From assembly GCF_054482525.1 (NCBI RefSeq), contig NZ_CM137006.1: a stretch of DNA of 64,000 nucleotides; one strand, written 5' to 3'. Made by a program: the position numbers and the translations under genes. Below the pieces are notes generated by a model that ran no database searches, was not told where the DNA came from, and saw only the letters and a list, made by a program, of their open reading frames with translations. Positions 54,157 through 54,330 of the stretch are shown here, one piece after another; position 1 is the stretch's first letter; the number at the start of each line of letters is the position of its first letter.

Positions 54157-54330
54157 CTAGTTGTCGCTTTTGCCGTGACTGCTCTTGCCACCTTTTTTAC
54201 CTGCTTCAGATGCGCGCTGCGGGTCATTTTTGAAATTACCCCCGCTGTGCTGTCCACCTTTTTTACCTGCTTCTGATGCTCTTTCGCGGTCTTCTGCAAA
54301 ATTGCCGGAACCGCCTCGATGGTTTGCCAT
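54157..54330 (-). CDS. ymdF: KGG-repeat stress-induced small protein YmdF
   Basis: 57-aa product MANHRGGSGNFAEDRERASEAGKKGGQHSGGNFKNDPQRASEAGKKGGKSSHGKSDN with duplicated ASEAGKKGG unit. Confidence 0.8.
   Translation of the reverse strand: MANHRGGSGNFAEDRERASEAGKKGGQHSGGNFKNDPQRASEAGKKGGKSSHGKSDN

Follow-up and report, generated by a model that had tools for sequence, protein, structure and literature searches.

The ymdF gene of Escherichia coli: a two-unit KGG protein, its sigmaS-type promoter and conserved features of its mRNA

KGG proteins are among the most strongly induced products of stationary phase and biofilms in enterobacteria and Pseudomonas, and deletion of a KGG gene lowers the drug tolerance of biofilms. 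GsiB of Bacillus subtilis and con-10 of Neurospora crassa are hydrophilic, glycine-rich, induced by stress or starvation and built from tandem KGG repeats, as YmdF is. GsiB has more repeat units than YmdF and is controlled by sigmaB, not sigmaS, while the 20-mer of the group 1 LEA proteins shares the GRKGG core. A relation of the KGG proteins to con-10 is stated in the literature (PMC6262077), and Stacy and Aalen (1998) proposed that the repeats of group 1 LEA proteins and of GsiB are homologous. PA2146 of P. aeruginosa is a small KGG protein strongly induced in biofilms; it and E. coli ymdF can stand in for each other with respect to biofilm architecture and tobramycin tolerance (PMC9262955). 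When ymdF is deleted, E. coli biofilms are thin, contain ~10-fold fewer cells and are ~100-fold more sensitive to H2O2; they are also more sensitive to tobramycin and ciprofloxacin (PMC9262955).

Our study reports on positions 54157-54330 of a 64-kb window, by which we mean the whole stretch of 64,000 nucleotides that was analysed; this segment is, near certainly, E. coli ymdF. The gene, its KGG repeats and its control by RpoS are all present in the literature and in genome annotation already, and in these respects our account is correct but ordinary. To this we add the location of the promoter in the window, RpoS control itself being published, and two small items, namely a covariation-supported stem-loop in the leader and an 18-nt stretch of frozen synonymous sites in codons 16-21. 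The residual value of the analysis is likewise small and lies in the mechanism of KGG proteins and in these leader and codon features: the extreme purifying selection on a disordered peptide offers a handle on whether the KGG family works by specific binding, and the RNA-level conservation of the leader and of codons 16-21 offers one on how expression is tuned.

The ymdF gene and its repeats

The open reading frame runs from 54330 to 54157 on the minus strand (ATG...TAG) and encodes MANHRGGSGNFAEDRERASEAGKKGGQHSGGNFKNDPQRASEAGKKGGKSSHGKSDN, a chain of 57 amino acids. The surrounding 1-kb region is 100% identical in DNA to E. coli chromosomes in which the gene is annotated ymdF, and at least 80% of this region is found in 5413 of the 5426 complete E. 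coli genomes, where RefSeq labels the genes rutG, ymdF ('general stress protein' or 'con-10 family general stress protein') and wrbA. An earlier note, made from the sequence alone, had proposed both the name ymdF and the 57-aa product of this frame; the translation and the RefSeq annotation of identical DNA agree with it on each count. The coding sequence and its ribosome-binding site are as follows.

54157..54330, minus strand: ymdF coding sequence, 57 codons and a TAG stop, from the translated reading frame and the RefSeq annotation of identical DNA
54337..54341, minus strand: Shine-Dalgarno sequence GGAGG, read from the sequence, with 6 nt between its end and the ATG

The sequence GGAGGT is unvaried across 66 aligned ymdF leaders, and GGAGG would be a strong site driving translation of YmdF. 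The monoisotopic mass that we compute for the 57-aa protein minus Met, 5748.7335 Da, equals the intact mass of 5748.73 Da (-0.8 ppm, Met removed) obtained by top-down mass spectrometry of E. coli BL21 colonies (PMC5594050); this agreement demonstrates that ymdF is expressed and fixes the start codon of the 57-aa form. A lack of expression, one of the two outcomes by which the earlier note would have been refuted, is thereby excluded. A 67-aa form starting at the ATG at 54360 was rejected, as this codon has no Shine-Dalgarno sequence and the product would have a mass of 6962.4 Da, a value at odds with the measured one, which only the Met-less 57-aa form matches. In E. coli K-12, YmdF is a stationary-phase (10 h) protein spot, and it was recovered in the insoluble cell-debris fraction alongside Dps and StpA (PMC6904343). 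Met1 is cleaved off, and the 5.75-kDa protein builds up in stationary-phase colonies and biofilms.

The gene lies between rutG and wrbA, both on the plus strand; it is convergent with rutG and divergent from wrbA over a 372-bp spacer (54331-54702). It appears to be monocistronic, with a promoter and a terminator of its own, the latter shared with its convergent neighbour.

54082..54102, both strands: bidirectional intrinsic terminator hairpin, terminator-like in sequence, common to ymdF (minus) and rutG (plus)

The terminator has an 8-bp stem with seven GC pairs, followed by TTTCTATTTA on the minus strand and GATGACTTTT on the plus strand. Of the 80 related genome loci retrieved, 72 retain the divergent arrangement of ymdF and wrbA, usually with a spacer of 370-390 bp. 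When the spacers of 20 genomes are aligned (the window, another E. coli strain and 18 other genera), discrete conserved blocks stand out. The spacer contains the ~80-nt ymdF leader, the ymdF sigmaS promoter, a separate sigmaS-type promoter for wrbA and, between the two promoters, ~190 bp with conserved blocks. The solitary, divergent position noted earlier is thus upheld, as is the length of the upstream region; this region is, however, not a single long regulatory region for ymdF, since the wrbA promoter and the ymdF leader lie inside it.

The product is made of two KGG units, which are also recognizable as a direct repeat in the DNA.

54245..54306, minus strand: KGG unit 1, codons 9-29, GNFAEDRERASEAGKKGGQHS, member of the direct repeat and a Pfam KGG stretch
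54179..54240, minus strand: KGG unit 2, codons 31-51, GNFKNDPQRASEAGKKGGKSS, reference copy of the direct repeat and the best Pfam KGG stretch

The two 62-nt copies (54245-54306 and 54179-54240) are spaced by 66 nt and are 73% identical; in the protein the repeat unit is 22 aa (66 nt), and both copies share an identical ASEAGKKGG core. When YmdF is matched to itself at an offset of 22, 17 positions agree; 20,000 composition-preserving shuffles gave a mean of 8.2 and a maximum of 15, and none reached 17. The two near-identical ASEAGKKGG segments described in the earlier note are therefore both real; its delineation of the unit was right as to the core and short as to the length, as it quoted only part of the 22 residues. 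Membership of the Pfam KGG family (PF10685) was judged by the curated gathering cut-off of 20.4 bits, against which YmdF scores 67.0 bits (E=1.6e-18) in two stretches, the better one covering residues 32-52 and profile positions 1-22 of 22. This score and the RefSeq name 'general stress protein / con-10 family' support the earlier assignment to the KGG-repeat type of stress protein. No NCBIfam model matches YmdF, and a tblastn search found no other KGG copies in the 64-kb window.

A scan of 1.84 billion cluster representatives returned 639 relatives with the repeat at E<=1e-3, of which 199 remain at E<=1e-10. Among the best 150 of these 639, each protein has one to five [KR]GG motifs, most commonly spaced by 22 aa (117 cases) and then by 19 (67 cases), and the consensus of the unit is ..[ER][RK]A[SA]EAG[RK]KGGQ.SGGNF.ND. 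The unit thus recurs in homologues, and the second refuting outcome named in the earlier note, a repeat unit not conserved in them, does not apply either. Residues 1-50 of YmdF are 92-98% identical across 15 enterobacterial genera at a dS of 0.5-1.8, and the median dN/dS of ymdF against these genera is ~0.03, which places the whole coding sequence under amino-acid selection. Position 23 is Arg in all 15 other genera, where unit 1 reads ASEAGRKGG or a close variant; the perfectly identical (9/9) ASEAGKKGG pair is consequently seen only in Escherichia among the genera sampled.

Promoter, leader RNA and invariant codons

Upstream of the leader lies a short conserved block that we take as the ymdF promoter.

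54415..54424, minus strand: sigmaS-type -10 element CTAAGCTTAG, with C at -13 and the hexamer TAAGCT at 54423-54418

The sequence aCTAAGCTTAg (54425-54415) has 8 of 11 matches to the sigmaS -10 consensus KCTAYRCTTAA and falls within the conserved block CACTAAGCTTAGT (54426-54414). This block was located in 69 of the 72 syntenic enterobacterial loci screened, the other three having no match; it reads CTA[A/T/C][G/C]CTT[A/C] in 65 of the 69 and is a looser variant in four, and the sigmaS-defining C, TA and CTTA are retained in nearly all 69. The mapped Salmonella ymdF promoter, CACTATGCTTAAT, is the same block as the -10 element of the window (PMC5437024 supplement); its -39 to +1 row closes with ...TTTTCACTATGCTTAATGTT and ends 7 nt past the -10 hexamer (PMC5437024 supplement Fig. 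S7), and a long 5'UTR is recorded for STM14_1275 (PMC5437024 supplement Fig. S4). By homology to the Salmonella promoter we infer a +1 at 54411 or 54410 in the window, which would give a leader of ~80 nt.

Deletion of rpoS in Salmonella reduces both ymdF RNA (log2 -6.8) and YmdF protein (log2 -5.2; PMC5437024 supplement), and qRT-PCR in S. Enteritidis concurs on the RpoS dependence of the gene (PMC7161692), which according to the literature holds in E. coli as well as in Salmonella. The RpoS dependence that the earlier note had put forward as a check is therefore already on record (PMC5437024), and its suggestion of stress-regulated expression is sustained both by these published data (PMC5437024, PMC7161692) and by the conserved sigmaS-type promoter. 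Biofilm growth, acid pH and stationary phase have all been reported to induce ymdF. Both ymdF and yciG belong to the set of OmpR targets that acid and osmotic stress share in Salmonella and E. coli (PMC6262077), and a list of CsgD target genes includes both ymdF and wrbA (PMC10002515). We propose that RpoS, the stationary-phase and general-stress sigma factor, transcribes ymdF from the sigmaS-type -10 element at 54424-54415.

Two other assignments in this region were considered and set aside. A promoter at the conserved TATGAT (54361-54356) or at TCTATACC (54353-54346) is opposed by E. coli strain E69, which deletes GTCTATACCCA, and by the Salmonella promoter, which maps to the upstream CTAYRCTTA block; TATGAT (54361-54356) is possibly a secondary ymdF promoter. 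The palindrome formed by CTAAGCTTAG was also weighed as an operator for a transcription factor, but palindromy is not conserved (Salmonella has CTACGCTTAA and Citrobacter CTATGCTTAA), whereas the sigmaS -10 positions are.

The leader itself carries two conserved elements.

54331..54411, minus strand: putative 5' untranslated leader of ~80 nt, its +1 placed by homology to the Salmonella promoter
54376..54409, minus strand: 5' stem-loop of the leader, CGUAGCG...UAUGGCagccGCCAUA...CGCCGCG, from folding and covariation
54351..54367, minus strand: near-invariant leader block ATGCAATATGATGTCTA, conserved across genera in alignments

The stem-loop starts at nucleotide 3 of the leader and lies within its first ~36 nt, with a predicted dG of -13.0 kcal/mol (z -2.7). 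Of 66 distinct enterobacterial leaders, 61 are predicted to form an equivalent hairpin no more than 4 nt from the inferred 5' end (median dG -12.6, median z -2.1), and the sequences of the inner stems vary widely from leader to leader. In the 7-bp outer helix 84.8% of cells are paired, against 17-63% in slid controls, and 47 cells show a double change, against 21.8+/-3.4 in shuffles, none of 500 of which reached 47; RNAalifold recovers four of the outer-helix pairs, with swaps between GC and AU. The leader stem-loop is supported by covariation. Emory, Bouvet and Belasco reportedly described in 1992 how stem-loops at the 5' end with at most a few unpaired nucleotides shield E. coli mRNAs from 5'-end-dependent decay. 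Because 5'-terminal stem-loops of this kind are known to protect E. coli mRNAs, we read that of ymdF as one that probably stabilises its mRNA. A second leader hairpin (GAGG...CCTC) is found in most of the other genera sampled and is absent from E. coli.

Within the coding sequence, another RNA-level feature falls inside the first KGG unit.

54268..54285 (18 nt), minus strand: codons 16-21, GAA AGA GCA TCA GAA GCA, with frozen synonymous sites in 72 distinct orthologues

Across these 72 distinct orthologues the synonymous entropy of codons 16-21 is 0.11-0.21 bits, whereas the matching codons in unit 2 have 0.66-1.78 bits. The frozen codons include the rare AGA, and yciG paralogues vary freely at these same positions; codons 2-4 of ymdF are likewise invariant at synonymous sites. 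The few substitutions that do occur at the frozen sites are mostly A to G, changes that still allow G-U pairs with the leader block. Pairing of codons 17-21 with the leader block UGCaauaUGAUGUCU (54366-54352) appears in minimum-free-energy folds from five species; RNAalifold, however, leaves it out, its ensemble probability is 0.24 in the window and 0.34 in the median, and Leclercia, Kluyvera, Klebsiella indica and Pluralibacter have an altered leader block with no compensating change in the coding sequence. We therefore do not regard this pairing as established, and the main alternative is that codons 16-21 are a site bound by a trans-acting RNA or protein.

Readings of YmdF function

YmdF is produced under RpoS and reaches high levels in stationary phase and biofilm; it is disordered and highly conserved. 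With a pI of 9.9 it is a basic and extremely hydrophilic protein, and its 21.1% Gly and Kyte-Doolittle GRAVY of -1.71 lie within the hydrophilin definition of Garay-Arroyo et al. (2000) in the form quoted in PMC3983491 (Gly >6%, hydrophilicity index >1). An AlphaFold2 model built on a 33-sequence alignment has a mean pLDDT of 58.6, a pTM of 0.28 and no residue at or above 70; in line with this low-confidence model, the Salmonella paralogues are reported to lack structure in solution (Oguri 2019, as cited in PMC7161692). A sequence search of the PDB returned no relative of YmdF. The protein is thus best read as an intrinsically disordered hydrophilin that is redundant with its paralogue YciG, its molecular mechanism being inferred.

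On the strength of its composition, its disorder and the in vitro protection that YciG gives to LDH on drying when the two are present in a 1:1 molar ratio (Reyes 2005, as cited in PMC3983491), we lean towards the view that YmdF acts as an LEA-like protectant, a role carried over to it from YciG and from the LEA proteins. The protein would stay unfolded, and at high copy number its KGG units would bind water or ions; it may transiently coat proteins or other macromolecules, and cells that are not growing would in this way be less damaged by acid, oxidative stress and lack of water. Redundancy with YciG, which we likewise propose, would explain why few phenotypes are seen in planktonic single mutants and why effects nonetheless emerge in biofilm tolerance and in multi-gene deletions. 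At pH 4.5 single deletions in Salmonella show no growth defect, while the yciG ymdF double deletion and the triple deletion grow modestly worse (bioRxiv 10.64898/2026.04.09.717482); the acid phenotype for which the earlier note had proposed to look is hence absent from the ymdF single mutant in Salmonella and present, to a modest degree, in the double and triple mutants. We hold with moderate confidence the explanation as a whole, in which the gene is ymdF, is expressed under RpoS and works by a hydrophilin mechanism.

Some observations sit uneasily with this mechanism. With synonymous sites near saturation, a dN/dS of ~0.03 and the 92-98% identity of residues 1-50 are tighter than a shield driven by composition would need, and the recovery of YmdF in insoluble debris with Dps and StpA argues against a freely soluble 5.7-kDa hydrophilic peptide. 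Both favour a reading in which the KGG units are short linear motifs that dock on a putative conserved partner, for which the nucleoid, the envelope, a signalling component and a protein of the catalase or YciF type are candidates, and so tune biofilm formation, drug tolerance and motility with no generic shield, an alternative that we consider possible, if on balance unlikely. Purifying selection of this strength on a disordered protein points towards specific contacts, as does the conservation of GNFxNDxxRAxEAG[RK]KGG across the best 150 of 639 relatives. E. coli ymdF, its counterparts in Klebsiella and PA2146 of P. aeruginosa can complement each other and restore BrlR levels in a sagS mutant (PMC9262955), and motility effects have been reported for the Salmonella paralogues, although work in S. 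Enteritidis did not bear these effects out (PMC7161692). Weak AlphaFold2 helices at residues 15-24 and 37-48 coincide exactly with the two RASEAGKKGG cores, but they belong to a low-confidence model with pLDDT <70. A bulk protectant, too, could be redundant and highly abundant, and YciG protects an unrelated enzyme in vitro. A further point against the hydrophilin mechanism is that the reported phenotypes conflict: they range over biofilm architecture, BrlR level, motility and persister counts, the last being opposite with different antibiotics, and some of them look regulatory rather than protective.

A more elaborate version of the docking alternative joins it to the RNA-level features. In this scheme, which we regard as rather doubtful, the KGG units would be sequence-specific docking motifs for a stationary-phase nucleoid or envelope partner, and ymdF would be under post-transcriptional control through the 5' stem-loop, the leader block (54367-54351) and codons 16-21 (54285-54268), where an sRNA or a protein might bind, for instance.

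That the locus works chiefly through a regulatory RNA, YmdF being a by-product, is very improbable. The frozen synonymous sites in codons 2-4 and 16-21, the conserved leader block and the 5' hairpin would suit such a role, but an mRNA under common post-transcriptional control could show them too, YmdF is abundant and has been detected directly, and a dN/dS of ~0.03 reflects amino-acid selection over the whole coding sequence. The only Rfam match, to sroD on the 3' UTR, would point the same way and was dismissed, since it covers the terminator hairpin and scores 22.8 bits against a threshold of 50.

That YmdF is an ATP- or GTP-binding peptide is hardly credible and was rejected: the string GKSSHGKS (residues 48-55) literally fits the Walker A pattern GxxxxGK[ST], and the Pfam KGG description, as quoted in PMC9262955, ties the family to the Walker motif, but 3.5% of composition-preserving shuffles of this G/K/S-rich protein produce the pattern, which occurs in only 5 of the 150 best relatives and is missing from the C-terminal tails of the Salmonella, Citrobacter and Klebsiella oxytoca orthologues inspected, while a disordered 57-aa chain cannot supply the strand-loop-helix fold of a P-loop and neither the PDB nor any P-loop family gave a match. 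The string is best explained by chance. Its distribution has been described differently, with YmdF lacking the Walker string and YciG having it (PMC9262955); contrary to this account, the YmdF of the window does carry GKSSHGKS.

Comparison with known KGG proteins

Set beside the described systems, YmdF as a disordered protectant stands furthest from the plant group 1 LEA (Em) proteins, which are a more distant functional analogy; they are much longer than YmdF, which has no match to LEA_5 or to any other LEA family in a Pfam scan at E up to 1. PA2146, interchangeable as it is with ymdF in biofilms, differs in its setting, being located near katE and regulated downstream of SagS and BrlR. The paralogue yciG heads the yciGFE(katN) operon (in Klebsiella: KGG, DUF892, DUF892, Mn-catalase), whereas ymdF stands alone and divergent from wrbA; the C-terminal tails of the two proteins differ, and the invariant synonymous sites of codons 16-21 are specific to ymdF, yciG being without them. 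In the architecture and character of the protein the correspondence is close. YciG of E. coli and Salmonella and STM14_1829/SEN1538 of Salmonella have the same two-unit architecture as YmdF and share its N-terminus, MA[N/E]HRGGSGNFAEDRE[R/K]ASEAG[R/K]KGGQHSGGNFKNDPQRASEAGKKGG, and like YmdF they are RpoS-dependent, intrinsically disordered and functionally redundant.

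Untranslated regions of the ymdF transcript

The inferred leader of the ymdF mRNA opens with a structural element that has outlasted its own sequence:
54376-54409, minus strand: stem-loop at the 5' end of the inferred ymdF leader, conserved and with covariation across the related enterobacterial loci L002-L079.

Although the leader sequences diverge, this stem-loop is kept in 61 of the 66 distinct enterobacterial ymdF leaders among these loci, and its outer helix displays covariation between GC and AU pairs. The element is probably a stabilizer of the mRNA. A natural leader variant is found in E. 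coli E69, which carries a deletion within the ymdF leader corresponding to window positions 54343-54355; this removes GTCTATACCCA and adjoining bases immediately upstream of the Shine-Dalgarno sequence, while the sigmaS -10 block further upstream and the 5' hairpin are both retained.

A second leader hairpin is seen in most of the sampled non-Escherichia genera (columns 57-90 of alignment A2). E. coli is without it, and has a gap of approximately 29 nt that falls between window positions 54375 and 54370. The hairpin has the sequence GAGGugaaagaauCCUC, which in Citrobacter and Salmonella reads GAGGAGucaCUCCUC, and its CUCC arm resembles an anti-Shine-Dalgarno sequence.

At the other end of the transcript, a match to the Rfam family sroD (window 54077-54151, minus strand) covers the ymdF 3' UTR and terminator. 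At 22.8 bits (E = 0.073) the match falls below the family's gathering score of 50, and it probably reflects terminator-hairpin similarity only.

Coding sequence and protein

Across 72 ymdF orthologues the synonymous sites are almost invariant in two short stretches of the gene, codons 2-4 (54319-54327, minus strand) and codons 16-21 (54268-54285, minus strand), the latter including a rare AGA; no such invariance is seen in the equivalent codons of repeat 2 or in the yciG paralogues. Pairing of codons 17-21 with the leader block 54352-54366 was examined and was not established. Residue 23 (codon 23, 54262-54264) is Lys in Escherichia versus Arg in all 15 of the other genera examined, and it is because of this difference that the two ASEAGKKGG cores are identical in E. 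coli.

The string GKSSHGKS at residues 48-55 of YmdF (window 54166-54189) fits the Walker A pattern. Chance alone produces such a fit in 3.5% of shuffles, and the string is not conserved, being present in 5 of 150 relatives; a Walker motif has been reported as absent from YmdF and present in YciG (PMC9262955). YmdF from stationary-phase E. coli K-12 was found in the insoluble cell-debris fraction together with Dps and StpA (PMC6904343). This recovery is unexpected for a small and very hydrophilic peptide, and hints at an association of YmdF with the nucleoid or envelope.

The ymdF-wrbA spacer and the wrbA promoter

Four near-invariant blocks lie between the ymdF and wrbA promoters (54452-54603), followed by the wrbA promoter itself:
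~54468-54452, ymdF-sense strand: TGTTGCAGgATATTAC, near-invariant.
~54524-54508, ymdF-sense strand: ATAAGAnnnGCTTAT, an inverted repeat, near-invariant.
~54573-54550, ymdF-sense strand: TTTGTnGCAAAATGAnACAT, near-invariant.
~54603-54588, ymdF-sense strand: TTGATTTATAACAA, near-invariant.
54619-54646, plus strand: wrbA promoter as placed here, TTGCAC (54619-54624), a 16-nt spacer and TATCTT (54641-54646), then TAAAAG.

The four blocks are probably transcription-factor sites; TTGATTTATAACAA agrees at 9 of 10 positions with the FNR/CRP-type site TTGATnnnnATCAA, and the genes on either side of the spacer, ymdF and wrbA, have both been listed as targets of CsgD (PMC10002515).

The ymdF locus is rearranged in Escherichia albertii. 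In strain NBRC 107761 (L004) the neighbours of a 98%-identical ymdF are a gene of the resolvase family and one for an aldehyde dehydrogenase, and wrbA was not found within 3 kb of this ymdF; three further loci (L006, L048 and L015) likewise have no wrbA upstream of ymdF.

Placement of the wrbA promoter (window 54619-54653, plus strand) puts the +1 position near 54653 and gives a leader of approximately 50 nt. This promoter agrees with the row published for the Salmonella promoter, GAAATTTGCACTC...TATCTTTAAATAG, which is entered there as STM14_1271.
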